In this document: piece by piece, positions 1,855 through 18,750 of the stretch
Layout of the letters: each line of letters opens with the position of its first letter
How positions within the stretch are numbered: position 1 is the first letter of the stretch
Source: Candidatus Omnitrophota bacterium
Lineage (GTDB): Bacteria; Omnitrophota; Gorgyraeia; Zapsychrales; Fredricksoniimonadaceae
NCBI GenBank assembly: GCA_044225175.1
Contig: JBGAJA010000002.1
Span: 82,917-146,916, forward strand
Length of the DNA stretch: 64,000 nucleotides
Reading direction: 5' to 3'
Made by a program: the position numbers and the translations under genes
The notes under the pieces: model-generated
The model's input: the letters and a program-made list of their open reading frames with translations, nothing else
Told to the model about the DNA's origin: nothing
The model's database searches: none

Positions 1855-1961
1855 AGCAAGATATTACCATGAAATTCTAAAATCGCATTTTCGATTTTCA
1901 TGGTAATTAAAAAGGGGCGGATAAAATTTATCCACCCCTTTTTATGTTATCGATTCATTGA

Positions 1962-4106
1962 TTATGCATTCATCAAAAGCATTTCTGCATAAGAAGGAAC
2001 AGGCCAAATGGCTTGTGGCACATATGCTTCTAAGGCATCAATGGATTGACGCAATTTGCTCATGGCTGCATTGGTTTTAGCGGAATCGTGTTTGGCTATT
2101 CCAGCTTCCAAAGCATCACAGGTTGTAAGAGCATCATCAATCAAACCAGAGATTGTCTTTAAGATTTTCTTTTGAGCAATCATCTTACCTGCAGCACCGA
2201 CTGTTCTAACATTCTCTGCTAACTCTCTTTGATATTCAATTGCAGCTGGAATCAACTGTGTGCGAGCCATGGTTAAAGCACAGTTACCTTCCAAGGCAAT
2301 GACTGTATTGTAAGCATGGACGTTGATTTCGTAACGAGAAGCAACTTCTTTGGCAGAAAGAACACTGTGTTTAACCAACACATCAATATTCTTTTTAGCT
2401 TTAAGAACTTCTAAAGCTTCAGGAGTTGTTTTCATGTTAGGAAGTCCGCGTTTCTTTGCTTCTTTGTGCCAATCAGCGGTGTAACCATCGCCATTAAACA
2501 GCACGCGTTTATGTTTCTTGATGATCTCTTGTAAGATCTTTTGAAGGCTGGCATTGAATTCTTTACCAGCTTTTTTATCTGCTTCTAATTGATCGGCAAT
2601 CTCACTCATCGCTTGAGCGACAATGGTGTTTAACACAGTATTTGCTGCGGAAGGATTTTGATTTGAACCAACAGCGCGGAATTCAAACTTAGCACCCGTG
2701 AAAGCAAATGGTGAGGTGCGGTTACGATCTGTTGTGTCCTTAGCTAATGAAGGAAGTGAATCAACACCGACGTGGATACTGCCTCCTTCGCGTGAAGATT
2801 TAGCCCCACCTTTTTCAATTTGCTCAACGATATCAAATAATTGATCGCCTAAGAAAATGGAAACGATAGCTGGAGGAGCTTCGTTTGCACCTAAGCGGTG
2901 ATCATTACCAGCGGTTGCAACAGTCATACGAAGAAGATCTGCGTATGTATCAACGGCCTTAATAATGGCACAAAGGGTTGTTAAAAATTTAGCATTTTCA
3001 TGAGGAGTTTTTCCAGGATATAACCAATTTTTGCCATCAGGACCGACGACAGACCAGTTATTGTGTTTACCAGAACCATTGATGCCGGCAAATGGTTTTT
3101 CATGAAGCAAACATGTTAGCCCATGTTTATCAGCTAACTGTCTCATGATTTCCATGGCCATCATGTTGTGATCAACACCTGTGTTTAAATCTTCATAGAT
3201 TGGAGCCATTTCGTATTGAGCGGGAGCAACTTCATTGTGACGTGTCTTGGAAGGAATGCCTAAGCCCCATAGTGTACGGTCCAAATCTTCCATGAAAGCC
3301 ATTACTCGAGGTTTAATTGCCCCAAAATAATGATCTTCTTGTTGCTGGTGTTTAGCTGGTGTGCGTCCGAATAATGTTCGTCCGGTTTGAACCAAGTCTA
3401 AACGAGCTTGATAATGAGCTTTATCAATTAGGAAATATTCTTGTTCTGGTCCTAAGGTGCAGTAGGCACGTTTGCCTTTAACATCAATTCCAAAAAGGCT
3501 TGCTAAACGGCAGACTTGCTTGGATAAAGCATCCATAGAACGCAATAATGGGGTCTTTTTGTCTAAGGCTTCCCCATGATAACCAATGTAGAAGGTTGGA
3601 ATGCAAAGTGTAGCACCTTCTGGACCTTCTTTAATGAAGGCAGGAGAGGTTGGATCCCAGCCGGTATAACCACGAGCTTCGAATGTTGCACGTAAACCAC
3701 CTGAAGGAAAAGAGGATGCATCAGGTTCGCCTTGAATCAATTCTTTACCAGAGAAGGTTAAAGAAATACCGCCTTGATCGTTCCAGCTGATGAAAGAATC
3801 ATGTTTTTCAGCCGTTGTACCGGTCAGAGGCTGAAACCAATGTGTAAAGTGGGTTGCACCTTTGGAAATTGCCCAATTCTTCATGGCTTCGGCTACTTCA
3901 TCGGCAATTGTTGCATCTAACTTGCCGCCTTCTTTGATTGTTTTCTCAATCGAAGAATAAGCTTTGGGTGATAAAACTTCCTTCATCACCTTCAAATTGA
4001 ATACATTTTGACCGAAATTTGCTGGCAAATTGCTGGCGAACGTGCCATCACAGCAGCATCCTTCATCAGCACAAGCGTCTATTACTTCTTTACGTCCTTG
4101 ACTCAT
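1962..4106 (-). CDS. glnN: Glutamine synthetase type III (GSIII)
   Basis: 714 aa, the size of GSIII, with the characteristic N-terminus [16 protein letters not shown]...[14 protein letters not shown].... A GGGGGA Shine-Dalgarno sits 7 nt upstream. Confidence 0.9.
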
Positions 4107-4159
4107 AATGTAATCCCCCTGTTGTTAGGTTGAAGTTAAATATGTCCATAAAAGAAAAA

Positions 4160-4203
4160 GTCCCCCTTGAAATCTAACCAACTTTGGTATTTCAAGGAGG
4201 ACT
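4160..4203 (-). terminator. Leader intrinsic terminator between the glnN promoter and the glnN start (14-bp stem followed by U-run on the minus-strand RNA). It also lies downstream of glnK1.
   Basis: tcccccttgaaat...atttcaaggagga inverted repeat, followed on the minus strand by TTTTTCTTTT. Confidence 0.6.
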
Positions 4204-4230
4204 TCTTTGCCCTCTAAACTTAAGGCCTAA

Positions 4231-4259
4231 ATAATAATTAATACGCTTAAATCTGTCAA
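4231..4259 (-). promoter_or_regulatory. Sigma70-type promoter for glnN (TTGACA-17-TATTAT, read on the minus strand)
   Basis: Reverse complement of tgtcaa at 4254-4259 and ataata at 4231-4236, with a 17-nt spacer. Confidence 0.55.
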
Positions 4260-4290
4260 GAAAAAATTCCTTGAACGACCTAAAGGGCTG

Positions 4291-4632
4291 TTATCCAATG
4301 GCTTTTGAACCTTCTTCGCCGGTGCGGATGCGAATGGCACGAGGCAAATCAAGGACGAAAATCTTGCCGTCTCCGATTTTTCCTGTGCGCGCACCTTTGA
4401 TAATCGCCTTAATTGTAGGCTCCACGTAGTCGTCATTGACGGCTATTTCCACTTGGATTTTACGAAGAAGATTACCTGTTTCTTTGACCCCGCGATAAAA
4501 TTCATCAACACCAATTTGGCGGCCATGACCTAAGACTTCCAAGACAGTAATTAAACTCACTTGAGCTTCATATAATGCAGTTTTCACATCTTCGAGCCTG
4601 TGCGGCTGGATGATTGCGATGATTAATTTCAT
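4291..4632 (-). CDS. glnK: PII nitrogen regulatory protein (copy 1)
   Basis: 113 aa: [17 protein letters not shown]...[29 protein letters not shown]...[12 protein letters not shown]. The T-loop is conserved, a GGAGG Shine-Dalgarno is present, and it lies downstream of amt. Confidence 0.9.
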
Positions 4633-4652
4633 TTAAAATCCTCCGTATTATT

Positions 4653-4712
4653 CGTAGGGGCGACCCTTGCGGTCGCCTTATTATTGGGCAGGTGCTAGAC
4701 CTGCCCCTACGA
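4653..4712. repeat. Composite REP/BIME-like element (two hairpins, GTAGGGGCGACC..GGTCGCC and GGGCAGG..CCTGCCCCTAC) in the amt1-glnK1 spacer
   Basis: Direct reading. Outer arms CGTAGGGG / CCCCTACG, and internal hairpins gcgacc-cttgc-ggtcgc and gggcagg-tgctaga-cctgccc. Confidence 0.7.
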
Positions 4713-4716
4713 TTAT

Positions 4717-5955
4717 TTAATCCAAAATCGTATATGCACGTTCATGGTGTTGTGTTAAATCTAATCCCATGATTTCATCTTCGGCGCTCACGCGCATACG
4801 AATGATCTTATCGGTCACGAAGCAAATAATCCATGTCATCACGCCACAATACAAAACAGCAACGACGGCACATTTTAATTGGATAAAGAATTGCTGCGGA
4901 TTACCCAGAAACATGCCATCTGCTCCAGCAGGATTAACTGCTTTGGTGCCGATTAATCCAATGGCTAATACTCCCCAAAATCCACTCACTCCATGAACAC
5001 CAAAAGCATCTAGCGTGTCGTCGAATTTAAATTTCTGTTTAAATGAGCTGATTGCAAAGAAACTTAAAAGACTTGCTCCTGCACCAACAATCAAAGCTCC
5101 TTGAAAATCAACAAACCCGCAAGAAGGGGTGATTGCAACTAACCCTGCAACTGCTCCTGAAATGGATCCGTACATCGTTGGTTTTCCGGATAAAGCCCAT
5201 TCTAATATGGCCCACACCACAACAGCTGCACTCGCTGCAGCATTTGTTGTAATAAAAGCATTCACCGCAACGCCATTGGCTCCTAAAGCAGAGCCCGCAT
5301 TAAATCCTAACCATCCAAACCACAGCAAACATCCTCCCATGACAACCATAGGAATATTATGCAGACTTGGTTTTGAAACTCCAATTCTCTTGCCTAAGTA
5401 AATGGCTGTAATCAACCCTGCAACTCCACAATTGATTTCAATGACAGTTCCTCCCGCAAAATCCAAAAGGCCCCAGCCACGAAATAAACCGCCTGTCCCC
5501 CAAGCCATATGAGCCATAGGACAATACACAAAAGTAAGCCATAGCACTGTGAACAATAAGAATGCAGAGAATTTAACACGTTCCGCATAAGAACCCACAA
5601 TAATGGCAGGAGTAATAACCGCAAACATGCATTGGAAGATCATAAATGCACTATGTGGAATAGTTGCGGAATAATCGGGGTTGGCATCTGCTCCAACTCC
5701 TTTAAGCATTAACCAATCAAATCCTCCAAAGAGCCAATTGCCTGTTGAAAAAGCCAAACTATACCCATACATACCCCATATAATACTAATCACAGCCAAG
5801 CAGGCCATGCACTGCATCAAAATACCTAGAACGTTTTTACGACGAACCATTCCTCCATAAAAGAACCCTAACGCGGGCGTCATAAGTAACACCAAAGCAG
5901 CTGACACTAACACCCATGCCGTATCCCCGGCACTGATTTGATTGACTGAATCCAT
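4717..5955 (-). CDS. amt: Ammonium transporter (Amt family), copy 1
   Basis: 412 aa polytopic membrane protein: MDSVNQISAGDTAWVLVSAALVLLMTPALGFFYGGMVRRKN. Confidence 0.9.
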   Translation of the reverse strand: MDSVNQISAGDTAWVLVSAALVLLMTPALGFFYGGMVRRKNVLGILMQCMACLAVISIIWGMYGYSLAFSTGNWLFGGFDWLMLKGVGADANPDYSATIPHSAFMIFQCMFAVITPAIIVGSYAERVKFSAFLLFTVLWLTFVYCPMAHMAWGTGGLFRGWGLLDFAGGTVIEINCGVAGLITAIYLGKRIGVSKPSLHNIPMVVMGGCLLWFGWLGFNAGSALGANGVAVNAFITTNAAASAAVVVWAILEWALSGKPTMYGSISGAVAGLVAITPSCGFVDFQGALIVGAGASLLSFFAISSFKQKFKFDDTLDAFGVHGVSGFWGVLAIGLIGTKAVNPAGADGMFLGNPQQFFIQLKCAVVAVLYCGVMTWIICFVTDKIIRMRVSAEDEIMGLDLTQHHERAYTILD

Positions 5956-6041
5956 ATAGATACTTCTCCTTCATACCATTCTCCATTTGACCTAGTTCTC
6001 CGTCGGCGGATCCTGTGGCATCTATGCCTTATAAAAACAAA

Positions 6042-6084
6042 GAAGCTCAGAGATGTTCTCTTTGAAAGAACATCTCTGAGCTTC
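6042..6084 (-). terminator. Leader intrinsic terminator between the amt1 promoter and the amt1 start (perfect 17-bp stem followed by U-rich run on the minus strand)
   Basis: gaagctcagagatgttc-tctttgaaa-gaacatctctgagcttc, with an A-run on the + side at 6031-6041. Confidence 0.65.
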
Positions 6085-6134
6085 TTCGCTCTTATTAATT
6101 GAAGACCTCATTGCCCCCAATCCAATTGAGGGCA

Positions 6135-6163
6135 ATGATATCGTCAAAATTTTGAAATGTCAA
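6135..6163 (-). promoter_or_regulatory. Sigma70-type promoter for amt1-glnK1 (TTGACA-17-TATCAT, minus strand)
   Basis: Reverse complement of tgtcaa at 6158-6163 and atgata at 6135-6140, with a 17-nt spacer. Confidence 0.5.
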
Positions 6164-6191
6164 GTAAGGGCGTATTGCAATACGCCCTTAC
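6164..6191. repeat. 28-nt perfect palindrome GTAAGGGCGTATTGCAATACGCCCTTAC (REP-like, GTA...TAC ends), 3 nt after the glnK2 stop
   Basis: Direct reading. It has the same 28-nt length and GTA...TAC architecture as the in-frame palindromes at 10974 and 11130. Confidence 0.7.
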
Positions 6192-6193
6192 AA

Positions 6194-6535
6194 TTATCCG
6201 ATTGCTTTAGAACCTTCTTCACCAGTACGGATACGAATCGCACGAGGAAGATCCAAGATAAAGATCTTTCCATCGCCGATTTTTCCTGTACGAGCACCTT
6301 TGATAATGGCTTTGATCGTTGGTTCCACATAATCTTCGTTCACTGCAATTTCAATTTGGATCTTACGAAGAAGATTACCTGTTTCTTTGACTCCGCGATA
6401 AAATTCATCGACTCCAACTTGACGGCCATGGCCCAGAACTTCCATAACTGTAATTAAGTTTACATCTGCCGCGTATAGCTCTTTTTTAACATCTTCGAGT
6501 CTATGGGGCTGTATGATTGCAATCACTAATTTCAT
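6194..6535 (-). CDS. glnK: PII nitrogen regulatory protein (copy 2)
   Basis: 113 aa, about 85% identical to copy 1. Confidence 0.9.
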   Translation of the reverse strand: MKLVIAIIQPHRLEDVKKELYAADVNLITVMEVLGHGRQVGVDEFYRGVKETGNLLRKIQIEIAVNEDYVEPTIKAIIKGARTGKIGDGKIFILDLPRAIRIRTGEEGSKAIG

Positions 6536-6564
6536 TTAAAATCCTCCTTGATTTATATATTGAT

Positions 6565-6593
6565 GTACGGGCACCGCATGCCGTGCCCCTACG
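6565..6593. repeat. REP element GTACGGGCACCGCATGCCGTGCCCCTACG in the amt2-glnK2 spacer
   Basis: Palindrome gggcacggcatgccgtgccc flanked by GTAC/CTAC. It is the same family as the copy at 23398. Confidence 0.75.
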
Positions 6594-7844
6594 TTAATCT
6601 AAAATCGTATACGCACGTTCATGATGTTGTGTTAAATCAAGACCCATGACTTCATCTTCTTGAGATACACGAAGACCCATGACTTTATCAATTGCAAAAC
6701 AGATAATCCAAGTGGCGATTGCGGTGTAACCAATTGTGACTGAGCAAGCCACGAATTGATTCCACAATTGAGCCCCATTACCTAATAAAAGACCATCTGC
6801 ACCAGCACCATTGACTAACTTGGTTGCAAAGATACCTGTTGCCAAAGCACCCCATAACCCGCCGATACCATGGATACCGAAAGCATCGAGTGTGTCATCA
6901 TAACCAAACTTCGGTTTTACATAAGCAACCATGCAATAGCAGAAGATGCTAACTAAGAAACCAATCCATAAAGAACCACCGATGTCGACGAAACCGCAAG
7001 CAGGAGTAATTGCAACCAACCCTGCAACTGCACCGGAGACGACACCAACCATTGTTGGTTTTCCTGCAAAGATCCATTCCATCAAAGCCCAGCTAAGTGC
7101 AGCAGCAGCTGTGGCTGTGTTGGTTGTGACAAATGCATGAGCTGCTAAACCACTTGCACCTAAAGCAGAACCTGCATTGAAACCAAACCATCCAAACCAG
7201 AGTAAAGCAGCACCAATCACAATAAAAGGAACATTGTGCATACCTGGCTTTTCGGTATGACCAATACGCTTACCTAAATATAAGGCTGTAACCAAACCTG
7301 CAATACCTGCGTTGATATGAACAACAGTACCGCCAGCAAAGTCTAAGGCGCCTAAACCACGTAAGAACCCGCCAACACCCCAAACCATGTGTGCAATTGG
7401 GCAATAGACTAAAAGCAACCATAATGCGGTAAAAACTAAGAATGCAGAAAACTTCATACGTTCAGCAAAGGATCCAATAATGAGCGCTGGTGTAATGACC
7501 GCAAACATACATTGGAAGATCATAAAAGCCAAATGAGGAATGGTCGCTGCATAATCAGCGTTAGCATCTTGTCCAACACCTTTAAGCATAAACCAATCTA
7601 AACCACCCATAAAGGCGCTTCCCTTACCAAATGCTAAACTGTAACCTATTACCACCCATAAAATACTCACCAAAGCCAAGCACACAAAACATTGCATAAA
7701 AACACCTAAGATGTTCTTACGTCTAACCATACCTCCGTAAAATAAAGCGAGTGCTGGAACTGTCATCAACAAAACTAGTGCAGTTGATGCCAATACCCAT
7801 GCCGTGTCCCCGGCATTGATTGGATTTACTATTGTTGTATCCAT
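6594..7844 (-). CDS. amt: Ammonium transporter (Amt family), copy 2
   Basis: 416 aa, paralogous to amt1. Confidence 0.9.
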   Translation of the reverse strand: MDTTIVNPINAGDTAWVLASTALVLLMTVPALALFYGGMVRRKNILGVFMQCFVCLALVSILWVVIGYSLAFGKGSAFMGGLDWFMLKGVGQDANADYAATIPHLAFMIFQCMFAVITPALIIGSFAERMKFSAFLVFTALWLLLVYCPIAHMVWGVGGFLRGLGALDFAGGTVVHINAGIAGLVTALYLGKRIGHTEKPGMHNVPFIVIGAALLWFGWFGFNAGSALGASGLAAHAFVTTNTATAAAALSWALMEWIFAGKPTMVGVVSGAVAGLVAITPACGFVDIGGSLWIGFLVSIFCYCMVAYVKPKFGYDDTLDAFGIHGIGGLWGALATGIFATKLVNGAGADGLLLGNGAQLWNQFVACSVTIGYTAIATWIICFAIDKVMGLRVSQEDEVMGLDLTQHHERAYTILD

Positions 7845-7881
7845 TTACTTCCTCCTTGATTGTTTGTTAAACAATAAAAAA

Positions 7882-7917
7882 GCCCAATTCCCCGCAACCT
7901 TTTTGCGAAAAATTGGA
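7882..7917 (-). promoter_or_regulatory. Second terminator-like hairpin in the amt2 leader, directly before the start codon (stem GCCCAATT/AATTGGGC followed by U6)
   Basis: Minus strand reads cccaatt[tttcgcaaaaaggttgcgggg]aattgggcttttttatt. Confidence 0.45.
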
Positions 7918-7954
7918 CCTCTGTGTCCCGTAGGCATCATAGCCTAAATAAAAA

Positions 7955-7993
7955 ATCCTCTTAAAGGAGTTTCATTACTTCCTTAAAGAGGAC
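7955..7993 (-). terminator. Intrinsic terminator in the amt2 leader. It also lies downstream of the 1045-aa gene.
   Basis: tcctcttaaagga...tccttaaagagga stem with one mismatch, then TTTTTTATTT on the minus strand. Confidence 0.55.
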
Positions 7994-8059
7994 TATCTTT
8001 GCCCTTACTTCTTACTTCACGCCCAAAACATCTTTGCTTTGAGCTAAATAACTGGTGCA

Positions 8060-8088
8060 AATATATCTGATGCTTTTGGCTTTGTCAA
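8060..8088 (-). promoter_or_regulatory. Sigma70-type promoter for amt2-glnK2 (TTGACA-17-TATATT, minus strand)
   Basis: Reverse complement of tgtcaa at 8083-8088 and aatata at 8060-8065. Confidence 0.5.
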
Positions 8089-8097
8089 ATTGTTTTT

Positions 8098-11000
8098 TCA
8101 GATCTTAGCCAATTGCTCTTGTTCTCGTCCAGGATTTGTAGAATTATCCTTCAATCCTAACAGAGGTCTCATTTGCATAATGTTCAGCGGTGTTATCTGA
8201 ATGATCACAGGTTCAGCTGAGAATATGCCTTGAACTTTAATACGTGCAATCATGGCTGGATCGAAATTCACTTTAACCTCACCGTTAACATCTTTCATCA
8301 CACTCATGCCCATGTTGGCACTGTTTAAATCAATACCACCGGGAGAAGAACTGTGGGCTGAATCTGTGGTTAATCCTTTATTTATTGAGGCATCGGTGGA
8401 TCTAGCTCCTTGACCAGCAAAACTTTTGGACATGGCGAAATCGGAAAACCGTTCAACCATACTATCAATAGACTTACCATTCACATTTTTAATGGTATCT
8501 ATTTCATTTCGGAACCTATTGGCTAATTCGTAAGCTGTTAAATCAGTGGGGAAATTCCTTATATAACTTATTATTTTTCCATCCTCTTTTTTTTCTATAA
8601 TTAATTTTCTTTGATTACTTCCCAAATCTTCAGCTTTAACCATCCAACCTTTCTTAGAAAGCATATTTGCTGATACTCTAACTCTGACTACTTTTTTACT
8701 CCTAGCCCTCGCTGCATTAACAGCTGGCTTAGCTGCCATGGCGGAGTCATATGGTCGGGGGAAACGGTTGTTAACAAGATCACAAAGAGTAGTCACCGTC
8801 CATGGTTTATCAAAAATATTATCCCTCTCTTGATCTGAGAACTCCGTAATGGATAATTCTCTCTGTATTGTTGAAAACAACCCAAATTCTTTGTTATATC
8901 TATTTTTTCCTAAATTAACCGAAGGAGTATCGCTGTCCTTAAGGGAACCCTTTGCTAATCCAAATTGTCTTTCTATAATTTCAATAACTTTTTGTTTTCG
9001 TCCTTTGTTCTGAATGTCATATTTTATGAATCTAATCCATTTTCCTAGTTGATCTTGATTATACGATTGCACTCCAATACTATCTGTATTGTTTTCATCT
9101 GCCTTAAGTAGATGTCTTCCTTCAAAATATTCATTTTTTATTGCTTCATAAATTTCTTTGTCTTCTGGAAACAATCTTGACAAGACGAGAATTTCAACAA
9201 AATTAGTATTACGACTCGAATTTTCTAAAAAACTGCCATAAAACTCATCGATAAAACGGATAACACGATCATATTCAAATTCTTTCCCATTCTTAAACTT
9301 AATCTTCACCTCCATCGCTGCGTCGTTAGATGCGATGGCCGCATCGGAGAATTTCTTTGGCTGACTGGCTATCATGGCTAGATGAGGTAAGGCTGCTTTC
9401 ATATCATTAACTTTAGCGATCATTGCCTCGCTCACATCAGGTCTCCAGCGATCGTCTCTTGCAGTAGTATCAATATGATTAGGAAGAGAAGCGGCTAAAG
9501 CTGCCAATTTTGCAATTTCAAGCGGTGCAAATCTTTGGTCTATTCTCAAGGGAAGGTATCCTCTATCAGCACCAAAGCGCTCGGAGAAGTTTGATTCTAC
9601 AATCAACATCACCGTAGGGTTTTCATATGTATAAGCAAAAGGTTCCCATTGGTCTATTTCTTCTTTAAAACTGTCTGGCATAATTACAAAAAGAGTGGCT
9701 GGTTCATACGCAGATAAAGCCCGACGATAATAAAATCCTTTAGCAACGGTTTTTGTGATCGAGCCTCCTCTGACCGTCTGTTGTGCTGTTAATTGCAAAT
9801 TCAATTGATCTCTAAAAGAAACTGTTGCTTCTTGAGGTCCAAAAACTATTCTAAAGCCTCGTGGACTACCATCACTCCATATAAGATTCCCATGCTCATC
9901 TTGTGAATACCCTTGATTGGATTGGTTAAAATGCAACATCGCTGAGTCGGAAGATTTGACTGCTATGGCCCGTTGTGGATTAAAAGCACCATTAATATTT
10001 AAGGCTGTTGTGATACGTTGGAACGAAGAGCCTGTGGGGGTAGCCACAGTGGCTGCATCCATTAAATTGTGCGATACACTAAGCATTGCTTCATTAGGCC
10101 CTTGGTATCCCCCTGAGAAGTATTTTCGTGGAATTCTTTGACCCGTAAGCTTGCCCTGAGCGTCAGTCAAAGGGTCTTCTTTGATATAGTTGAATACACC
10201 CTTCTTATATGCCTGAAGATACTGCTGGTAGATTTGTTCTTTTACAGATGGATCAGAAAGGTTGACGCCTTTAATTGTATTTTTATTGGAATAGACCTGA
10301 TTAATAAGCGCTTCTTTAAGGTTCTTTTTGTACCATATAGCCAGAATCTGGGAATTGAAGATTTGGCGTAATGTGGCGAAGTTTTTGCCGGTGTTGACTT
10401 CTTTTTCGATTTCAGGAATGACGATGTCTCGAATGATTTGGCTGCTGATGACGTTGGGGGTATTTCCCTGGGTTGCTTTCACATTCAACGCTGTCTCGCT
10501 TGGCAACCTGCTTGGGGACACGTTCTGGTTGTTCTTGTTAGGAACATGTCCCCTGGTTGGCATTTGGTTTTTATCTCTGGCTAGATAATCTTCCTCCAAC
10601 ATCACCTTCAAATGCCCATCTACAACAAAGGCTGTTTGTCCATGTTCATATACACTGGCTTTATCGGCTAGAATCCACACCTTATTAAAGGTGTTAACTG
10701 GTATCTGAGCATTGGGACCGTAGATTGCTTGGGCTTTGGCATAGACTCTGTTCCAAAACTCTTTTCCTAGGTCTTTCTCTGGATAGATCAAAGATGCGGT
10801 TAACTGTTTGAGGATGTAGTCTTGGGCTAAAAGATCTCTGCCTAAGGCTGTTTGGCCTAAGGCTTCAGGAACTATACGGTCTTTTTCATAGGGGCTTAGG
10901 TTCACCCATAGGTCTTTCTCTGGAACGGTTAGGCAGGCGAAGAAATATTTAACCAAACGGTCGCCTTCTTGATGTAGAGACGCAAGATCTTGCGTCTCTA

Positions 11001-11235
11001 CAGATAGGCCGGAATTCCCGGTATCTACGATAAAATCAAATAAAAATGGATTATCTTTATGAACAGTTAAACCTTTGATTAAGGTTGGTTCAAAGGCTGG
11101 GCTTAAATTGACCATGGTTCCAGGAATAGGTAGAGACGCAAGATTTTGCGTCTCTACTGCATGTGATTTAGGAATAATAATTGATGTGCATGAAAAGGTA
11201 AGAATAACCAGGGAAGCAGTAACCTTCTTAAACAT
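8098..11235 (-). CDS. Giant secreted protein B (1045 aa), a paralog of the 1848-aa protein. It has a signal peptide. Its N-terminal domain of about 330 aa and a short C-terminal module (GGIDxxS...) are shared with A. Function unknown.
   Basis: Long ORF. N-terminus ...CLTVPEKDLWVNLSPYEKDRIVPE...NTFNKVWILADKASVYEHGQTAFVVDGHLKVMLEEDY aligns with protein A. Signal peptide MFKKVTASLVILTFSCTSIIIPKSHA. Confidence 0.75.
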   Translation of the reverse strand: MFKKVTASLVILTFSCTSIIIPKSHAVETQNLASLPIPGTMVNLSPAFEPTLIKGLTVHKDNPFLFDFIVDTGNSGLSVETQDLASLHQEGDRLVKYFFACLTVPEKDLWVNLSPYEKDRIVPEALGQTALGRDLLAQDYILKQLTASLIYPEKDLGKEFWNRVYAKAQAIYGPNAQIPVNTFNKVWILADKASVYEHGQTAFVVDGHLKVMLEEDYLARDKNQMPTRGHVPNKNNQNVSPSRLPSETALNVKATQGNTPNVISSQIIRDIVIPEIEKEVNTGKNFATLRQIFNSQILAIWYKKNLKEALINQVYSNKNTIKGVNLSDPSVKEQIYQQYLQAYKKGVFNYIKEDPLTDAQGKLTGQRIPRKYFSGGYQGPNEAMLSVSHNLMDAATVATPTGSSFQRITTALNINGAFNPQRAIAVKSSDSAMLHFNQSNQGYSQDEHGNLIWSDGSPRGFRIVFGPQEATVSFRDQLNLQLTAQQTVRGGSITKTVAKGFYYRRALSAYEPATLFVIMPDSFKEEIDQWEPFAYTYENPTVMLIVESNFSERFGADRGYLPLRIDQRFAPLEIAKLAALAASLPNHIDTTARDDRWRPDVSEAMIAKVNDMKAALPHLAMIASQPKKFSDAAIASNDAAMEVKIKFKNGKEFEYDRVIRFIDEFYGSFLENSSRNTNFVEILVLSRLFPEDKEIYEAIKNEYFEGRHLLKADENNTDSIGVQSYNQDQLGKWIRFIKYDIQNKGRKQKVIEIIERQFGLAKGSLKDSDTPSVNLGKNRYNKEFGLFSTIQRELSITEFSDQERDNIFDKPWTVTTLCDLVNNRFPRPYDSAMAAKPAVNAARARSKKVVRVRVSANMLSKKGWMVKAEDLGSNQRKLIIEKKEDGKIISYIRNFPTDLTAYELANRFRNEIDTIKNVNGKSIDSMVERFSDFAMSKSFAGQGARSTDASINKGLTTDSAHSSSPGGIDLNSANMGMSVMKDVNGEVKVNFDPAMIARIKVQGIFSAEPVIIQITPLNIMQMRPLLGLKDNSTNPGREQEQLAKI
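10974..11001. repeat. 28-nt perfect palindrome GTAGAGACGCAAGATCTTGCGTCTCTAC embedded in frame in gene B, encoding VETQDLASL
   Basis: Direct reading. Codons gta gag acg caa gat ctt gcg tct cta fall in the gene B frame. Confidence 0.8.
11130..11157. repeat. Second copy (27/28 identical) of the GTAGAGACGCAAGAT(T/C)TTGCGTCTCTAC palindrome, in frame in gene B. It encodes VETQNLASL at residues 27-35, immediately after the predicted signal-peptide cleavage site SHA.
   Basis: Direct reading. Residue V27 maps to 11155-11157. Confidence 0.8.
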
Positions 11236-11670: not shown

Positions 11671-14600
11671 CTATTCCGCCAATAATGTGTGGATCATGCT
11701 TTGAGAAACAGGTACAACCATTACAACTTCAGGCGTTATTCCATAGATGGATTGTATTGAAAAAGGCTCTATGCTAGGTTGATTAGTCCCTTGCTCTTGA
11801 AGATCTAATAAATGACTGTCCATATCAATGCCCCCTTTAATCTCAGAGAGGCCTTTAACAGGATTTGCGGTCATCATAGCCTGGTCTGAAGGAGATTTTC
11901 CAATCTCTTCAACCTTTGCAACCGTTTGAGGGTCAATCCCAATAGGTGAACGGGTAGTGTGAACGGAAATACTAGGATATGTCCAGGCCCGGTTCCAAAG
12001 GTGAATATCTTGAGGCTTAATACTCATCTTAAAAAGACCCAAATTGATCGTGAACTCAGGAAATATGGAAATGGTACTGGCCTTTTTATACATGGCATTA
12101 AACATCACCTTGTAAGCCATTAAACGGCCCAAAGGATCAAAAGCAAGGTTATTCATTTTCTTAATCACCTCACTATCCGTCGCATTTAATATCTGGCCTT
12201 GAATGTTGATGTGGTGATCTGTAATATTTTTATCTGAAAAATCCTCTCGGCCGATCGTAGTCACCTCTGCACCAGATACCAAACGATTGCCAAAAATACC
12301 ATTTCTAACCGCCTTAGCCTGTCTCAGAGTGACTTTAACAGCCTCTTTGGCCATTTGATCAACAGGAAGAGCACTAATAAGTTGTAGACCTCTGACAATG
12401 CGATGCGTAAATCTGGCTCCCAAATGATCTTCGGGGTTTCCTCCATGAACATTCATCGTCATGGAACCAGGCGCACGGGCCCCCATTTTGCTGACAAACG
12501 CAGTACTAATCTGATGCACAAAAGGAAGGTCTCCAATGACCATACTAGGAGGCCCCATTCTCGCCCATCGAGGCCTGCCGGTAAAGGTACGATAAATAAG
12601 TGTCGTAATTAAAAAAGGCGCCCACACCGCAACCATAAAGTCTGCTGTGGTTGCCCAAAAACCACTCATACTGCGAAGCGCAGGACCAGGGGGACATCCT
12701 AACGCATTCATGGCTAAATGAACTGGAGCTCCCATATAAAAAATACTAGCGACAAATGCTCTGAAGATAAAATTAACTTTAGGGGTTTCCAATAAATGTC
12801 CCCCGAGATACTGTCCATGATTAATTAGTTCTTGATGAACCTTGCTCTTAATGTCCCTGCCTTGCTCATCAACTCCTGTTATTCTTTTGGAATCTTTGAT
12901 CATTCCCTGAATCATGTCCTCGAGCCTTTTGAGATCGCTTTCTTGAACTTGTAAACCCCAAGGATTGTGATGAGGAAAAACTTCTCTTAATCGTTTAACC
13001 AAATGCCGTGTTAATAAAATCTGCTCTGCAAATAAAAGAATGTCTGAAGTAGGAGCTGCTTCTGCTGGATAGTAATCTCCCGTCGTAAAAATACGCCTTG
13101 TAAAAGGAGCATCCGGAGTTAATCTTTGCCCTAAAGCCATGTTGATCATGGCATCCAGACGAGAGGTCATCACAAATGTGTTGCCTTGAGTAATCTTATT
13201 TAAAAGTCCTGCTAAGGCCATGCTTGGAAATGTAGATCCGGAAAGAGATATGATTAAGCCGATTGTCCTATTGTTTATTTTAGATAGAGGGTCACGCAAT
13301 TTTTTATTAGAAGAGTTGGTTTCAATAGGCATTTTGGGCATAAAAATATGCAGTAATTGCTTAAAATTTTCACCTAACCACAAAGATTTTTCATAACCAC
13401 TAATATCTAAAACGGTGTTGTTGGAATCGTCCTTATTATTTAGTGTTTTTTGTTTTTGACGCAAACTTGAGATAGAACGATCAAAGTTAGCTATTAAATC
13501 ATCTAGAATTATTTTAATCTGAAGTTCGGTAAAAACCTGAAGCTCATGGTCCATTTGTTCAGCATGCTTTATAAGATCTTCATCTTTGATCTGTCTTGAT
13601 AGCAGCTTCTTATTTAAATCTTCTGCATAAGAAATAATGAAATTACTCGCCTGACTTTCAATGATGGCCACGATCAATGAGTTTTCCCAAGAAATGGAAT
13701 CTTGGTGCAAAAATTTCTTTTGATCTTCTGAACAAACCACTTGGCCTGATTCACAATCCTGTAAAAATTTGTGGATTCGCCTGACTACATCTGCACGCAA
13801 CAAAGAATACGTGAGGCTGTGTTTCTTTAAGAAATCTTCCACGTAACGAGAGGATGCCATTTCAGCAAAGGCTTCTGCAGATTGATAGTCAAAAGACCGT
13901 GGATTTTCCCAGTCCTTAACTTTGGTAGAGATGGCGTTGGATGTTCTTTCTAAATCTTCATCGATAATGTTTTGAGGATCTTTATATTCAATAGGGGGCT
14001 TGTAGTATGGATTATCTTCATTTAAAGAATAAAGCCGTTGTGAAATTTGTTCTGGGGTCAGATCTTTATTGCCGGAAGAACGCACCCTCACATAAAAGGC
14101 CTTTGTCTTTGAAAAACCAATGTCTGCAACCTCATCCTTTCTGGGATCTAACATAAATAACTTCTCTAAAGAACCTTTACTGCCAAATTTTCCCAATAAA
14201 ACCAAAGGGTCTGAGGCAAAGCTCAAAAACTTCTTCATTACATTAAAGCCAAACGCCATGCCTTGGGATTTTGAAAAAAGAGTCACTCCGTCATTTTGTA
14301 AAGAAGTCCTGACAACTAGCCCATAAGATCCTTCAGCTCTTTCTTTAAAATCCAAAGTGGCTTGAAAACGATTGCCAATAAAAAACCTTTCAACGGCCAT
14401 GTCCACAAATCGAATTCTAGTCTCTTGGCTTTGATTCCACCGACGTAAAATTTCTCCAGCTGGGGTTTGTTTTGAACCCTCTGCTTCTAAGCGTTTCACT
14501 AACTTTTCTTTAAACGCATTGATCTTGTGGTATTGAAACTTCAAATCCGGCCATTGATTAGCCATGTCTTTGCTTACCCACAAATCTTTAAATTCTTTAT

Positions 14601-17217
14601 TAGCCCCCAGATCAGGTCGCGAGAGCCCTGGGGCATCTTGGATAAAGATTTCTTCGAAGAGTTGCGCCATAGCATCTTCTTCTTCGATGTTTAGAATATC
14701 CCCCAAGGCTTCATCTGCTGTTTTATGATTGACCATGACATGGGCGTATCGAATCGATCCCCGCCAGCTGCCTTGAGTTAAATGAAAATGGATTTCTGGA
14801 GCCGTAGGTGGTGAGTCGCCCTCAGGCATATAGTCATAGCGCCCCTGGGTGCCCCTTTCTGGATCAGGAGGAATCCATACATCTTTCTTCATATGAACGA
14901 CTTTGCCAAAGAACTCTCGAATCTCTGTAAGATCAAGCATTCTGTCATGCAAATAATAATAATCATTGTCTCCGTTATGAGAGGTAGTGACCAAAACTTC
15001 TTTCTTATGGACCACCAGTTTTCCATCGCTAATTGCCCATTGAAGTCTTTCTTCTTTAGGACCTAAGAAAGGATGTGAGGCCCTTTTGCTGACAGCCCCT
15101 CCCGTGGCAAAACGCACATGACCATTGACTCCATGAACCATGACTTCACTATCAGCTGAATGCTTTGCTCCCTTGATGTCTTGTCTGAATTCACTGAGCA
15201 AGGAGCTTACTAAATCACTGCCTGCACCTCGTTTACTTTTAACGACCTTGGTCAAATAAACATTGGCTTCTCCATTAGAACCATCAATCATCACCTGTCC
15301 GGCCGACTGACCGCCTCTCACAATCAGACGCCTCATAAGCCCATCTACTCCCTCCTGCACCCATTGGGGATAAAGCCCTTGATTGGATTCATCAACCCAG
15401 AACACTCCATAATTGCCGCATTCGAATTTATCTGAATCAACAGGGAGTTTTTTAATGTCGGATTTCCATGAGGCCTTGATGGCATTCCATCCTGACACAC
15501 CGATAGGGCCTAAAAGAGGTAAAACCCAGGAATGTTCAAGCCCAAGAAAATAAGCGCTAATAGCTGTAGCGACTGTGGTAAGCCACGTTGCAGCGAATCC
15601 TGTATAATGGATGGTTTTTTTCCTCCAACCTTCACTGGAAAAAAGAACATAAGGGTTTTCTTTAGGTATTTGCCTCCAGGGTAATATTATTTGCAACCAT
15701 TGATTGAGACTGAAATTTGCTTTCAAATTATTAACACTTAAAGCTTCTTTCGATCGATGAGGATGGAATACGGCAGAGGACACAGCATGACCACCGACCT
15801 CATGAACCCCTATATTTAAGGCATATAATGCGCGTGTAATAAATGGCAAGGCAACCGCAGTCGTTATTAAACTCACTGGGTCCCATCCAACTGTACTAGT
15901 TGCTATGACCATGCCGCTACTCCAGCCTAAAAAATCCATCGATCTTGAGTATGTGGTCGCGGACTTTTGAGCAAAGTCTCTTTCTTTTCCTCCGACCAAA
16001 CGAGGAATAGAATTTCTAACTTCTCCTTCTATTAGCTTGAATGGATGCTTATTCGTCAAAGTTCTTTGATCAGGAAAACGCACAATGGAACCATGTTCAT
16101 CTGTAGCATTCAAATCGATAGTGGCCATGGCCAAATCACTGCCTAAGTCCATCCCTTGAGAATTCTCTATTTCACTGTAAACATGTTTGGTTTGAAGGCC
16201 GAATCCTATAAAATCCATCCCTCCTGATGCATATTTACGAGGAATAACTGTTTGATTTGAAGAATCATAATCTTCACGGATATAGTTATAAACCAGCTTT
16301 TTATATGCCTTCAGGTACTGTAAGAAAATCTTTTCTTTAATGTTCTTATCTTGAGCATCCACCCCTGTGATTTTATTTTTTCCAACATACTCTTGAGATA
16401 ACACGCTGCTTTTTAAATGTTTCTTGTACCATGTTGCTAAAATCATGGCATTGAAGACTTGGCGAACGACCGCAAAATTCTTTCCCTCATTGATTTCCCG
16501 CCTTAGTTCAGGAAGAATAATTTCTCGGACGATTTGGGCGTATTTTTCCGTAGGGGCAGGCCCCTGCCCGATATTTTTATCCATCGACACATAATCGTAT
16601 TCCAACATCACATCCAATTTGCTATCCACAACAAAAGCACTATCTCCCTTCACATAAACCTTGGCTGTTTTAGGGACGATCCAAACTTTATTAAAGGTAT
16701 TAATAGAAACATTGGTTGTGCCATAGATTTCTTGAGCCTTTAGATATATTTTTTGCCAAAACTTTCGGCCTAATTCATTTTCGGGGTAACTTAAAGAAGC
16801 CATGATTTGTTTAAGTAGATAGTCTTGTTCTAAAAGACTTTTCCCCATTTCCGTTCTACCAAAGTATTCAGGTGCAATGCGGTCCTTTTCATAGGGCGAA
16901 AGATTGACCCATAGATCACTTTCGGGAACTGTTAAGCAAGTAAGGAAATATTTGGTGAGTGTGGTAATTGCATCTTTTAAAGCTTGCCCTCTAAGGCCAG
17001 AAGCTCCTTCATCAATTAAGAAATCAAAACGCAAAGCATTATTCGTGTTGGTCTTAATCCCTTTTAATACCAAGGGTTTAAAAGAGGGGCTTGTAGAAAT
17101 CATCATCCCAGGAACAGGAAGATGAGGCATAGATTGAGCATGAGCATCCGGTAAAGGACCTAAGGAAGTAAGAAAAAATGCAAGAATGAGGATCTGAATA
17201 AGAATTTTCTTGATCAT
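11671..17217 (-). CDS. Giant protein A (about 1848 aa from ATG 17217; the ORF track uses an upstream TTG). It has a signal peptide, the shared N-terminal domain, several hydrophobic TM segments, an embedded class II (Ntn) glutamine-amidotransferase-like domain (residues about 604-760) and the shared C-terminal module. Function unknown.
   Basis: ...KFECGNYGVFWVDESNQG...RRLIVRGGQSAGQVMIDG...HGVNGHVRFATGGAVSKRASHPF...VTTSHNGDNDYYYLHDRM matches the GlmS/PurF/AsnB N-terminal motifs (CGIVG, RRLEYRGYDSAG, HTRWATHG..AHPH, VHNGIIENY). TM-like stretches include FIFRAFVASIFYMGAPVHLAMNALG and AVWAPFLITTLIY. Confidence 0.8.
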   Translation of the reverse strand: MIKKILIQILILAFFLTSLGPLPDAHAQSMPHLPVPGMMISTSPSFKPLVLKGIKTNTNNALRFDFLIDEGASGLRGQALKDAITTLTKYFLTCLTVPESDLWVNLSPYEKDRIAPEYFGRTEMGKSLLEQDYLLKQIMASLSYPENELGRKFWQKIYLKAQEIYGTTNVSINTFNKVWIVPKTAKVYVKGDSAFVVDSKLDVMLEYDYVSMDKNIGQGPAPTEKYAQIVREIILPELRREINEGKNFAVVRQVFNAMILATWYKKHLKSSVLSQEYVGKNKITGVDAQDKNIKEKIFLQYLKAYKKLVYNYIREDYDSSNQTVIPRKYASGGMDFIGFGLQTKHVYSEIENSQGMDLGSDLAMATIDLNATDEHGSIVRFPDQRTLTNKHPFKLIEGEVRNSIPRLVGGKERDFAQKSATTYSRSMDFLGWSSGMVIATSTVGWDPVSLITTAVALPFITRALYALNIGVHEVGGHAVSSAVFHPHRSKEALSVNNLKANFSLNQWLQIILPWRQIPKENPYVLFSSEGWRKKTIHYTGFAATWLTTVATAISAYFLGLEHSWVLPLLGPIGVSGWNAIKASWKSDIKKLPVDSDKFECGNYGVFWVDESNQGLYPQWVQEGVDGLMRRLIVRGGQSAGQVMIDGSNGEANVYLTKVVKSKRGAGSDLVSSLLSEFRQDIKGAKHSADSEVMVHGVNGHVRFATGGAVSKRASHPFLGPKEERLQWAISDGKLVVHKKEVLVTTSHNGDNDYYYLHDRMLDLTEIREFFGKVVHMKKDVWIPPDPERGTQGRYDYMPEGDSPPTAPEIHFHLTQGSWRGSIRYAHVMVNHKTADEALGDILNIEEEDAMAQLFEEIFIQDAPGLSRPDLGANKEFKDLWVSKDMANQWPDLKFQYHKINAFKEKLVKRLEAEGSKQTPAGEILRRWNQSQETRIRFVDMAVERFFIGNRFQATLDFKERAEGSYGLVVRTSLQNDGVTLFSKSQGMAFGFNVMKKFLSFASDPLVLLGKFGSKGSLEKLFMLDPRKDEVADIGFSKTKAFYVRVRSSGNKDLTPEQISQRLYSLNEDNPYYKPPIEYKDPQNIIDEDLERTSNAISTKVKDWENPRSFDYQSAEAFAEMASSRYVEDFLKKHSLTYSLLRADVVRRIHKFLQDCESGQVVCSEDQKKFLHQDSISWENSLIVAIIESQASNFIISYAEDLNKKLLSRQIKDEDLIKHAEQMDHELQVFTELQIKIILDDLIANFDRSISSLRQKQKTLNNKDDSNNTVLDISGYEKSLWLGENFKQLLHIFMPKMPIETNSSNKKLRDPLSKINNRTIGLIISLSGSTFPSMALAGLLNKITQGNTFVMTSRLDAMINMALGQRLTPDAPFTRRIFTTGDYYPAEAAPTSDILLFAEQILLTRHLVKRLREVFPHHNPWGLQVQESDLKRLEDMIQGMIKDSKRITGVDEQGRDIKSKVHQELINHGQYLGGHLLETPKVNFIFRAFVASIFYMGAPVHLAMNALGCPPGPALRSMSGFWATTADFMVAVWAPFLITTLIYRTFTGRPRWARMGPPSMVIGDLPFVHQISTAFVSKMGARAPGSMTMNVHGGNPEDHLGARFTHRIVRGLQLISALPVDQMAKEAVKVTLRQAKAVRNGIFGNRLVSGAEVTTIGREDFSDKNITDHHINIQGQILNATDSEVIKKMNNLAFDPLGRLMAYKVMFNAMYKKASTISIFPEFTINLGLFKMSIKPQDIHLWNRAWTYPSISVHTTRSPIGIDPQTVAKVEEIGKSPSDQAMMTANPVKGLSEIKGGIDMDSHLLDLQEQGTNQPSIEPFSIQSIYGITPEVVMVVPVSQSMIHTLLAE
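16548..16570. repeat. REP-family sequence (GGGCAGG-cc-CCTGCCCCTACGG on the coding strand) embedded in frame in gene A, encoding GQGPAPTE, in a region that differs from paralog B
   Basis: Direct reading. It has the same CCTGCCCCTAC half as the intergenic REP at 4690-4712. Confidence 0.6.
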
Positions 17218-17231
17218 AATGGCTTTCAAAT

Positions 17232-17248: not shown

Positions 17249-17266
17249 TGCCATAGGCAGAAAAAA

Positions 17267-17307
17267 AGCCCAACGCTCTTTTGATTTTCACCAAAAAGAA
17301 TTGGGCT
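17267..17307 (-). promoter_or_regulatory. Terminator-like hairpin 2 in the giant-operon leader (stem AGCCCAA/TTGGGCT, then U7 on the minus strand)
   Basis: Minus RNA reads ...agcccaattctttttggtgaaaatcaaaagagcgttgggctttttttct. Confidence 0.45.
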
Positions 17308-17324
17308 TCAACGCCAATAAAAAA

Positions 17325-17353
17325 CCCAATGTCCTCGTCTCGAGTCATTGGGC
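17325..17353 (-). promoter_or_regulatory. Terminator-like hairpin 1 in the giant-operon leader (CCCAATG...CATTGGG, then U6)
   Basis: Minus RNA reads cccaatgactcgagacgaggacattgggttttttatt. It lies downstream of a candidate promoter TTGACA(17457-17462)-16-TATGCT. Confidence 0.45.
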
Positions 17354-17478
17354 ATCAGTGTCCTTGTCCTACAAGCAGTTATACCGACTTCCTTGCCGAA
17401 CTGCTTTTATTAAAATCTTGTTAAGACCGTGTTAAGCATACTATCTTTTTTTGCTTTGTCAAGAATGCGGAGGAATGT

Positions 17479-18750
17479 TTACAAAGATTTTTGCAGATCA
17501 GCCATCAAAATAATGGATTCGGCAATGTCTTTCATGGAGCGGCAGGAGTCCATGCTTTTTTTGTGGATGAGTCGATAAGCGGCATCTTCTGAGATTGAGT
17601 TCATCTTCATAATAATCCCTTTGGCACGTTCCACAAGCTTGCGCGTTTCTAAGGCTTCTTTGGCTTTGAGGGCTTCTTCCATGAGCTTGGTGTTTTCAAC
17701 AGCAACGGCTGCTTGATTTGCTACCATTTGCAGAACGTTGACCTCTTCGTCGGAGAAACGGTGCTGTTCTTTGGTGTAGACATTGATAACCCCAATGGCC
17801 TTATCTTTAACTATCATGGGAACAGCTACCATAGATGTTAAACCTTCCTTAACAGCCAAATCTCGATAGGCATACATTTTGTCATTTCTAACATCATAGA
17901 CTGTGATTGGTTTTCGTGTTTTAAGAACTGTGCCGCTTAAGGAAGTCTCTACTTTAATATTAGGTTTCTTTTTATAATCTTCACTCAAAGACTGTGTGGC
18001 TTTAATGACAAGATCGCTTCCTTTATCATCTAAAAGCATGACAGAACAAATCTTGGAATTAAGCATTTCTGCCGTCACAACGACAATCAAATTTAGAATT
18101 TCATCGAGATAGTGTTCGGAAGTGATTGACTGGCTGACTTTAATAAGAGAATCAAATTGCAAAGCTTTCTTTTTGGTTTCATCAAAAAGCCTTGCATGCT
18201 CAATAATGCCTCCCACCTGTTTAGCAATCATTTCAATAAGATTGATGGTGGTCTGGGAATAATCTTGTTCACGTTTATGTTGGACATTGATAACGCCAGT
18301 TGCCTTACCCTTAAAAATAACAGGGACAGAAAGAAACGCTTCATAGCGATCTTCTGGAAGAACATCAAAACTCTTGAAGCGTTGATCTTTGTAGGCTAGT
18401 TTTGAGATGGCGACCGTCTTACTTTCACGAGCTACCCACCCTGTAATTCCTTCCCCGATTTCCAAGTGCACCTTCCCTAACTCTTTAGTGTGAACCGTTT
18501 TGGAAGCCATTAGCACCAAAAATTCTTTCTTATCATCAAAAAGATAGATAAAAACAGAATCTGCCTTAGTCATTTCGGTCACGATTTTAACAATTAATTG
18601 GAGAGTCAGGTGTAAGTCAAGTTCGGAAGAGGCTATATCAACGACTGATCGAAGAACTTTAAGCTCTTCGTTGGAAGAAATATTAAGTGTTTTCTGGGGT
18701 GCCTTATTTTTCATGGGGGTTATTATATCCATCGACTCAACTAGACACAA
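17479..18750 (-). CDS. GAF-GAF-ANTAR RNA-binding antitermination regulator
   Basis: 423 aa. It has two GAF-like domains (...LHLTLQLIVKIVTEMTKADSVFIYL..., ...LDEILNLIVVVTAEMLNSKICSVMLLDD...) and a C-terminal ANTAR helix bundle, ALETRKLVERAKGIIMKMNSISEDAAYRLIHKKSMDSCRSMKDIAESII. Confidence 0.8.
   Translation of the reverse strand: MCLVESMDIITPMKNKAPQKTLNISSNEELKVLRSVVDIASSELDLHLTLQLIVKIVTEMTKADSVFIYLFDDKKEFLVLMASKTVHTKELGKVHLEIGEGITGWVARESKTVAISKLAYKDQRFKSFDVLPEDRYEAFLSVPVIFKGKATGVINVQHKREQDYSQTTINLIEMIAKQVGGIIEHARLFDETKKKALQFDSLIKVSQSITSEHYLDEILNLIVVVTAEMLNSKICSVMLLDDKGSDLVIKATQSLSEDYKKKPNIKVETSLSGTVLKTRKPITVYDVRNDKMYAYRDLAVKEGLTSMVAVPMIVKDKAIGVINVYTKEQHRFSDEEVNVLQMVANQAAVAVENTKLMEEALKAKEALETRKLVERAKGIIMKMNSISEDAAYRLIHKKSMDSCRSMKDIAESIILMADLQKSL

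Follow-up and report, generated by a model that had tools for sequence, protein, structure and literature searches.

A probable ANTAR-type transcription attenuator in the leader of glnN in a nitrogen gene cluster of Candidatus Omnitrophota

The glnN locus and its leader

We analysed a 64-kb stretch of a Candidatus Omnitrophota contig (hereafter the window), with a focus on the leader of glnN, the gene of a type III glutamine synthetase (GSIII). All coordinates are positions in the window, and all leader elements are read on the minus strand. The glnN gene (1962..4106, minus strand) encodes a protein of 714 aa that was assigned by its Pfam domains: the open reading frame (ORF) contains PF12437 (GSIII_N, 4.8e-76), PF00120 (Gln-synt_C, 8.6e-22) and PF18318 (Gln-synt_C-ter, 2.1e-40). 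Its closest GSIII relatives, at 83% identity, are found in metagenome-assembled genomes of Candidatus Omnitrophota. Upstream and on the same strand lie amtB1 (4717..5955) and glnK1 (4291..4632), the latter ending at 4291. On the other side, the gap to the downstream GATase gene contains a strong hairpin at 1905..1982, with an A-run and a T-run at its flanks (AAAAAGGGGTGGATAAATTTTATCCGCCCCTTTTT). It has the form of a terminator on either strand, and glnN is therefore probably monocistronic.

The sequence-only reading of this DNA had described a promoter, an intrinsic terminator and a ribosome-binding site in front of glnN. The promoter is present as described on the minus strand, with TTGACA at 4259..4254, a 17-nt spacer and TATTAT at 4236..4231, and matches the consensus at 11 of 12 positions. 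The hairpin with its 14-bp stem was also found (4202..4160), although the distance from the -10 box is 28 nt and not about 35 nt as had been stated. Its 5' arm GUCCUCCUUGAAAU (4202..4189) and 3' arm AUUUCAAGGGGGAC (4173..4160) enclose a loop of 15 nt (4188..4174), and one of the 14 stem pairs is G-U. As expected of an intrinsic terminator, this stable stem (about -21 kcal/mol) stands directly before a U-tract, UUUUUCUUUU (4159..4150). A simple terminator scanner missed the hairpin because its loop is longer than 8 nt. The ribosome-binding site GGGGGA (4119..4114) lies 7 nt before the ATG (4106..4104), again as described, but the gap between U-tract and ATG is 43 nt instead of about 45 nt. The folding energy of the whole leader was -41 kcal/mol compared to -24.9 kcal/mol in shuffled sequences (z = -4.8), and none of 200 shuffles was as good.

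The earlier reading had also named the scenario that would speak against regulation, namely that the hairpin acts only as terminator of the upstream genes while a separate glnN promoter lies further downstream. One half of this stands: the hairpin is the sole terminator available to the amtB1-glnK1 transcript after the glnK1 stop at 4291. The other half does not, as the promoter scan found no sigma-70-like promoter between the U-tract and the glnN ATG. For a sigma-54 promoter or a TnrA/GlnR operator nothing convincing was seen by eye, and no scan for these was run.

The element that explains the leader had been missed. It is a small hairpin, P (GAGGGC-AAAGAA-GUCCUC, 4214..4197), with 6 bp, a C-G closing pair and a 6-nt loop that has A at position 1 (A1) and G at position 4 (G4). 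The GUCCUC of its 3' arm is at the same time the first 6 nt of the 5' arm of the terminator, which makes the two structures mutually exclusive. When the growing transcript was folded, P (-7.9 kcal/mol) had the lowest energy of all folds at lengths between 28 and about 58 nt, and from 64 nt onwards the terminator dominated (-30.3 kcal/mol compared to -20.1 kcal/mol with P enforced). With P enforced, a residual A/U-rich upper stem was left with six unpaired nucleotides before the U-tract; judged from this fold, the residual stem should not terminate transcription.

ANTAR targets have been defined as hexaloop hairpins with A1, G4 and a stem of at least 3 bp (Ramesh 2012, PMC3369931). Hairpin P agrees with this description in stem and hexaloop size and in both loop positions, it overlaps and excludes a terminator, and an ANTAR gene is present in the genome. 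The same description includes two tandem hexaloop hairpins (P1 and P2) with a short linker, and this pair is missing from the glnN leader. The minimal ANTAR target was later redefined as a single hexaloop (Walshe 2022, PMC8934654), and by that definition the glnN leader qualifies.

We also looked at structures that might serve as a second hairpin. Candidates for P1 were CCUU/GAGG (7-nt loop), GCCUU/AGGGC (8-nt loop) and a hairpin that spans the -35 box. An A1/G4 hexaloop is absent from all three, and the former two compete with hairpin P. Second ANTAR sites at terminator apices were considered as well, where A1/G4 hexaloop hairpins are present at ACC-AAAGUU-GGU in the glnN leader (4188..4177) and at AGU-AAUGAA-ACU in the first terminator (T1) of the amtB2 leader described below (7978..7967). 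The former is not conserved in the orthologous locus L095 and the latter not in L001, so that both are probable chance matches, and a second ANTAR contact at these apices is rather unlikely.

The GAF-GAF-ANTAR regulator and the sister leaders

A gene for a GAF-GAF-ANTAR regulator (17479..18750, minus strand) heads the minus-strand cluster. It encodes 423 aa from a TTG start, while its database twin starts at an ATG at 18714 and has 411 aa. The ANTAR domain (PF03861, 72.1 bits with a cut-off of 27.3) occupies the C-terminal residues 363-414 and the two GAF domains are N-terminal, which is the architecture of a one-component GAF-ANTAR protein. A second ANTAR domain was not found in the window by tblastn. 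The protein is highly conserved: the protein clusters listed for the regulator (at least 120) were all at least 68% identical to it, and the few with organism names were Omnitrophota. In the sources the protein is named by its domains only.

The second GAF domain is closest to that of NifA (TIGR01817, 7e-29; aligned over residues 198-379). The NifA GAF domain of Azotobacter binds 2-oxoglutarate. The first GAF domain is closest to the GAF domain at the N terminus of EI-Ntr/PtsP (PDB 3ci6, E = 4e-26; NCBIfam PRK11061, 1e-39; aligned over residues 23-187), and the EI-Ntr GAF domain is a glutamine binder (PMC4848567). We propose from these similarities that the regulator may respond to glutamine and/or 2-oxoglutarate through its PtsP-like and NifA-like GAF domains. 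Alternatively, the signal may be relayed by GlnK. GAF-ANTAR proteins were declared uncharacterised in 2012 (Ramesh, PMC3369931), and our literature search found no characterisation after that year.

When searching the window, the motif GGCANNGANGTC was found three times, compared to 0.30 copies expected, and none of 100 shuffles reached three. All three copies are on the minus strand in leaders of the nitrogen cluster. Of the promoter matches in the first 12 kb, the best three are likewise all on the minus strand, before amtB2, amtB1 and glnN, and each is followed by a terminator and then the gene. Moreover, the glnN hairpin and the hairpins in the amtB leaders of the cluster share the sequence GGGC-A..G..-GUCCUC.

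The amtB1 leader (6033..6163) starts with a promoter at 6163..6135, followed by a first hairpin, P1 (GAUUGGGGGC-AAUGAG-GUCUUCAAUU, 6122..6097), and a second, P2 (GAGC-GAAGAA-GCUC, 6091..6078). The latter overlaps the terminator, a very long hairpin (6086..6040) with a U-tract. This hairpin is near-perfect, with about 31 bp, and the leader folds at -55.8 kcal/mol (z = -10.9). The second transporter gene, amtB2 (6594..7844), is followed by glnK2 (6194..6535), both on the minus strand. Its leader (7876..8088) carries two tandem attenuators behind a promoter at 8088..8060. The first module consists of P1 (CAAAGC-AAAGAU-GUUUUG, 8041..8024), P2 with a 7-nt loop (GGGC-AAAGAUA-GUCC, 8004..7990) and T1 (7993..7956), and the second of a single hairpin (GGAC-ACAGAG-GUCC, 7928..7915) and its terminator T2 (7919..7882). 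This layout is repeated in the orthologous leaders of L001 and L081. A fourth leader (17261..17462, minus strand) is located between the regulator gene and an ORF of 1852 aa and contains the promoter TTGACA-16-TATGCT (17462..17435), the hexaloop hairpin UCGGC-AAGGAA-GUCGG (17399..17384) and two tandem terminators (17352..17325 and 17306..17268). The pair of hairpins P1 and P2 is thus seen in the amtB1 and amtB2 leaders and is weak in the leader of the 1852-aa ORF.

Several further features of the cluster were observed. In the first module of the amtB leaders, the hairpin that overlaps the terminator carries a conserved loop of 7-8 nt (AAAGAUA, AAAGAUAA and AAAGAUG) instead of a hexaloop. Found at 8004..7990 in the window, at about 2523-2541 in L001 and at about 17753-17767 in L081, these loops deviate from the ANTAR consensus in a consistent way, as three orthologous leaders show. 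The two amtB-glnK pairs stand in tandem (4291..7844), each with its own promoter and attenuator leader. Since a single pair is found at this place in the long contigs of L081, L083 and L084, the second pair of the window seems to be a lineage-specific duplication. Two giant minus-strand ORFs (8098..11235, 1045 aa; 11671..17229, 1852 aa), for which no Pfam or NCBIfam match was found, are situated between the ANTAR gene and amtB2. In relatives, different giant ORFs take this position after the regulator, one of 1606 aa in L081 (12043..16863) and one of 6303 aa in L082 (11406 onward). Finally, the 9-mer CGTAGGGGC is present in five copies compared to 0.10 expected (4653-4711, 6585-6593, 16549-16557, 25161-25169 and also 23401-23425). 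It opens short GC-rich palindromes such as GTAGGGGCAGGTCTAGCACCTGCCC, and both spacers between amtB and glnK contain copies. The element resembles a REP-type repeated extragenic palindrome, and similar ones occur in relatives (gggcaggc…gcctgccc in L081).

Conservation in Omnitrophota and distribution upstream of GSIII genes

Orthologues of the regulator (46-89% identity) are linked to glnN or to amtB-glnK-glnN in six loci, L001, L002, L003, L081, L083 and L084. Those of L001, L002 and L003 were found by tblastn, and in L002 the regulator gene is directly upstream of glnN. Four further orthologues are on long contigs, and in three of these (L081, L083 and L084) the order is regulator, variable genes, amtB, glnK, glnN; in the fourth, L082, the regulator is followed by the 6303-aa ORF. 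Downstream of glnN, a GATase gene and an NAD synthase gene are found in L083 and L084, with gltB in addition in L084, and the sequence of L081 ends inside glnN. The amtB leaders of L001, L081, L083 and L084 all harbour modules of hexaloop and terminator, often two in tandem.

We then compared the leaders of orthologous glnN genes. Those of L095, L002, L087, L092 and L088 (GSIII identities of 83, 69, 68, 66 and 64%, respectively) all keep, behind a sigma-70-like promoter, an A1/G4 hexaloop hairpin that overlaps a terminator. The hexaloops are AUUGAA in L095, AUUGGA in L087, AUUGAU in L002 and AAUGAC in both L088 and L092. In all five, the base of the terminator is the hairpin 3' arm GUCC(U)…, while the terminator apices are unrelated to each other; both alternative structures are retained. 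A comparison of the window with L095 shows one stem position at which G-C is replaced by C-G. The -35 box does not vary in L095, L086 and L085, with the -10 box at the same spacing and the same position in the leader. A weak module (AAC-AGUGAG-GUU) was seen in the glnN leader of L081. In L085 (GSIII 81%), two copies of a palindrome (gattcccgcg…cgcgggaat, about 2280-2490) are located in place of hairpin and terminator, which suggests that the attenuator may have been disrupted there by a repeat element.

To follow the module further, we used a strict definition: an A..G.. hexaloop had to sit on a stem of 4 bp or more, a terminator of -9 kcal/mol or lower had to capture the 3' arm of this stem, and a U-tract had to follow. 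In a set of 80 loci from genomes, 15 modules were found in 32 kb of zones upstream of glnN compared to 56 in 1.75 Mb elsewhere, an enrichment of about 14-fold. In 80 independent loci from metagenomes, which have no organism names, 19 modules were found where 1.1 were expected (Poisson P = 2e-17). Across both sets the enrichment upstream of GSIII genes is about 15-fold. The named carriers in the genome set are mostly Clostridia, together with one Treponema locus and Omnitrophota.

In the Clostridial leaders that we inspected, the promoter is typically followed after about 10-15 nt by one hexaloop hairpin, which a terminator overlaps; the layout with a single hairpin, as in the window, is therefore the usual one before GSIII genes. 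A tblastn search with the regulator of the window found orthologues in the Omnitrophota loci only and no GAF-GAF-ANTAR gene in the flanks of the Clostridial GSIII loci with the module, with only a weak match to the ANTAR domain alone in L043. Presumably these loci use other ANTAR proteins, of the NitR type.

Proposed mechanism, alternatives and significance

We consider it likely that the glnN leader works as an ANTAR-type transcription attenuator that depends on a protein, namely the neighbouring GAF-GAF-ANTAR protein. Transcription would start at about 4224 from a near-consensus and probably constitutive promoter, and after about 28 nt the nascent RNA would form the GAGGGC-AAAGAA-GUCCUC hairpin. 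If the hairpin is not bound, its 3' arm would be pulled into the 14-bp terminator once GGGGGAC has been made, and the polymerase would stop at the U-tract. When active, the regulator (17479..18750) would bind the A1/G4 hexaloop and hold the small hairpin. The upper stem would then stand 6 nt away from the U-tract, so that termination would fail and glnN would be transcribed. What the sequences show are the elements, their mutual exclusion, their recurrence, the regulator with its synteny and the two conserved structures in orthologues; protein binding, the signal and the direction of control, with read-through under nitrogen limitation, are inferred. The same switch would control amtB1-glnK1, amtB2-glnK2 and the 1852-aa ORF, and we therefore propose that the cluster is one regulon. 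As each leader terminator ends the operon upstream, antitermination would also join the operons into longer transcripts.

The sequence-only reading had already suggested attenuation or antitermination control, and this idea gained support from the hexaloop overlap, its recurrence, the ANTAR gene, the synteny and the conserved dual structures. It had named riboswitches, T-boxes and ANTAR-regulated leaders as possible architectures, of which the last is supported by our data and the other two are not. A metabolite riboswitch (for instance for glutamine), a T-box or a leader-peptide attenuator would also fit the order of promoter, terminator and ORF, yet the likely start is separated from the terminator arm by only about 20 nt, which leaves too little room for an aptamer or a T-box, and the leader has no ATG. 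The Rfam search proposed earlier for the glnA RNA gave no match: in the window, the only match to Rfam 15 at gathering score was a tRNA (58 bits, 52188..52259, minus strand), and with E values up to 10 no relevant family, glnA RNA and T-box included, was found in 4050..8150. Matches below threshold were several miRNA models on the amtB1 hairpin and the Streptococcus RNA SpR14 (35 bits with a gathering score of 50), which reflect chance or structure only. All these data make a riboswitch, T-box or leader peptide very improbable.

Two other explanations have more in their favour. The hairpin might merely end the amtB1-glnK1 operon, with TTGACA-17-TATTAT being either non-functional or the source of transcripts that leak past the hairpin at a fixed rate, and without any regulated antitermination. 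No other terminator follows the glnK1 stop, promoter-like matches are common in this AT-rich DNA (31 found compared to 28 expected at 9 of 12 positions), and L085, L086 and L084 have a glnN promoter without a leader terminator. However, the position of the promoter is conserved in L095, L086 and L085, and transcripts should therefore start upstream of the hairpin; the stretch behind the U-tract offers no sigma-70-like promoter instead. A plain terminator also leaves unexplained why an A1/G4 hairpin overlaps it and why this arrangement recurs in three leaders, in orthologues and at other GSIII loci. We regard this explanation as rather unlikely, and ANTAR control would allow the hairpin to be operon terminator and attenuator at once. 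Alternatively, the attenuator could be run by another factor, such as a second ANTAR protein encoded elsewhere in the genome, some other protein that binds RNA or a small RNA with pairing to the CCUCC-rich arm. The window covers just 64 kb of the genome, the single hexaloop before glnN differs from the dual hairpins before amtB, and the Clostridial loci carry the module with no GAF-GAF-ANTAR gene detected in their flanks. Against this stand the synteny of regulator and glnN in six Omnitrophota loci, with direct adjacency in L002, the hairpin sequence common to the amtB leaders of the cluster, and the single ANTAR domain found in the window. We regard control by another factor as unlikely.

Some results weigh against control of glnN by the GAF-GAF-ANTAR protein. 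The state with the terminator is about 10 kcal/mol more stable than that with P enforced. No A1/G4 hairpin was found in the glnN leader between the likely start at about 4224 and P, and EutV antitermination requires both hairpins (PMC8934654) where this leader has one. The regulator gene is 13 kb away from glnN in the window, and its ligands are assigned by domain similarity alone. In L085 and L086 (GSIII 80-81%) the promoter is retained but hairpin and terminator are lost, glnN of L084 has a plain leader and glnN of L001 follows glnA, both without a module; the module is therefore dispensable or easily lost. The chance controls within the window gave a mixed picture. A generic scan accepted any A..G.. 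hexaloop hairpin that had 4 bp or more and a 3' arm used by a terminator; it found three modules compared to 2.7 in shuffles, which is chance level. Promoter matches of at least 11 of 12 positions numbered five compared to 2.07 expected and were not significant (17 of 200 shuffles reached five), although three of the five sit in the three leaders of nitrogen genes on one strand. In an alignment of 27 hairpins, the covariation count was high (94% paired, a value that none of 500 shuffles reached), and A1 was present in 25 of the 27. This alignment was selected for hairpins, G4 and hairpin formation being the selection criteria, and we therefore put little weight on its covariation. The case for ANTAR control, as read from sequence, rests on the specific motif, the positions, the linked regulator and the comparative data, and not on structure statistics within the window.

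NasR and AmiR are the classical cases of ANTAR proteins. NasR, which acts on the nasF leader of Klebsiella oxytoca, and NitR of solventogenic Clostridium resemble the proposed system as one-component or orphan ANTAR antiterminators of nitrogen genes with leader terminators. Neither has a GAF domain: NasR senses nitrate/nitrite through a NIT domain, and NitR carries a receiver-like domain and controls a type I glnA jointly with an antisense RNA. In Geobacter sulfurreducens, the site CAGGCAANGGCGCC of the REC-ANTAR protein GnfR overlaps terminators in the nifH, glnK and amtB leaders (Ueki & Lovley 2010, PMC2995071). The GnfK/GnfR system is similar in its nitrogen targets, glnK and amtB included, and in its hexaloop GGC-AANGGC-GCC, which is upstream of the terminator and overlaps it, which is of the same motif class as GGGC-AAAGAA-GUCC. 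In contrast, GnfR is a phosphorylated response regulator in a sigma-54 cascade, whereas here we find a one-component GAF-GAF-ANTAR protein, sigma-70-like promoters with perfect -35 boxes, a type III glutamine synthetase as target and an Omnitrophota host.

The eut leaders of Enterococcus faecalis, which are bound by EutV, share the A1/G4 hexaloop, the importance of the closing pair and the mutually exclusive antiterminator and terminator (PMC3369931, PMC8934654). They differ in having two hairpins joined by a constrained linker, of which P1 serves recruitment and P2 antitermination, and in a REC-ANTAR protein that acts in ethanolamine use, while the glnN leader has only the hairpin that overlaps the terminator. 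Covariance-model hits have been reported before genes for P-II proteins, ammonium transporters and glutamine/glutamate synthases, often several per genome, as in Desulfotomaculum acetoxidans (Ramesh 2012, PMC3369931). These predicted regulons show the same pattern as the cluster in the window, but dual hairpins were required for them and they came from cultured genomes that did not cover Omnitrophota. ANTAR control of nitrogen genes is thus already known from GnfR, NasR and the predicted regulons. Of interest here are the uncharacterised sensor architecture of a regulator with PtsP-like and NifA-like GAF domains, the form with a single hexaloop and a first model of nitrogen control in Omnitrophota.

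A broader reading is possible but tentative. In Omnitrophota, nitrogen assimilation might be controlled mainly after transcription initiation, with constitutive consensus promoters before amtB, glnK, glnN and neighbouring genes and one GAF-GAF-ANTAR protein that reads glutamine (PtsP-type GAF) and 2-oxoglutarate (NifA-type GAF) directly and opens attenuators with a single hexaloop, which would be simpler than the dual hairpins of the classical targets. The module might then be a common control of GSIII genes across Clostridia, Spirochaetes and Omnitrophota. Its presence in about a quarter of the 160 GSIII loci sampled suggests a widespread and little-described control of glnN. The cluster bears on two questions about ANTAR proteins, namely which signal GAF-ANTAR proteins sense and whether a single hexaloop beside a terminator supports antitermination in vivo. 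For a candidate phylum without a cultured model organism, it provides a concrete model of nitrogen assimilation, with a regulator, four leaders and a proposed signal.

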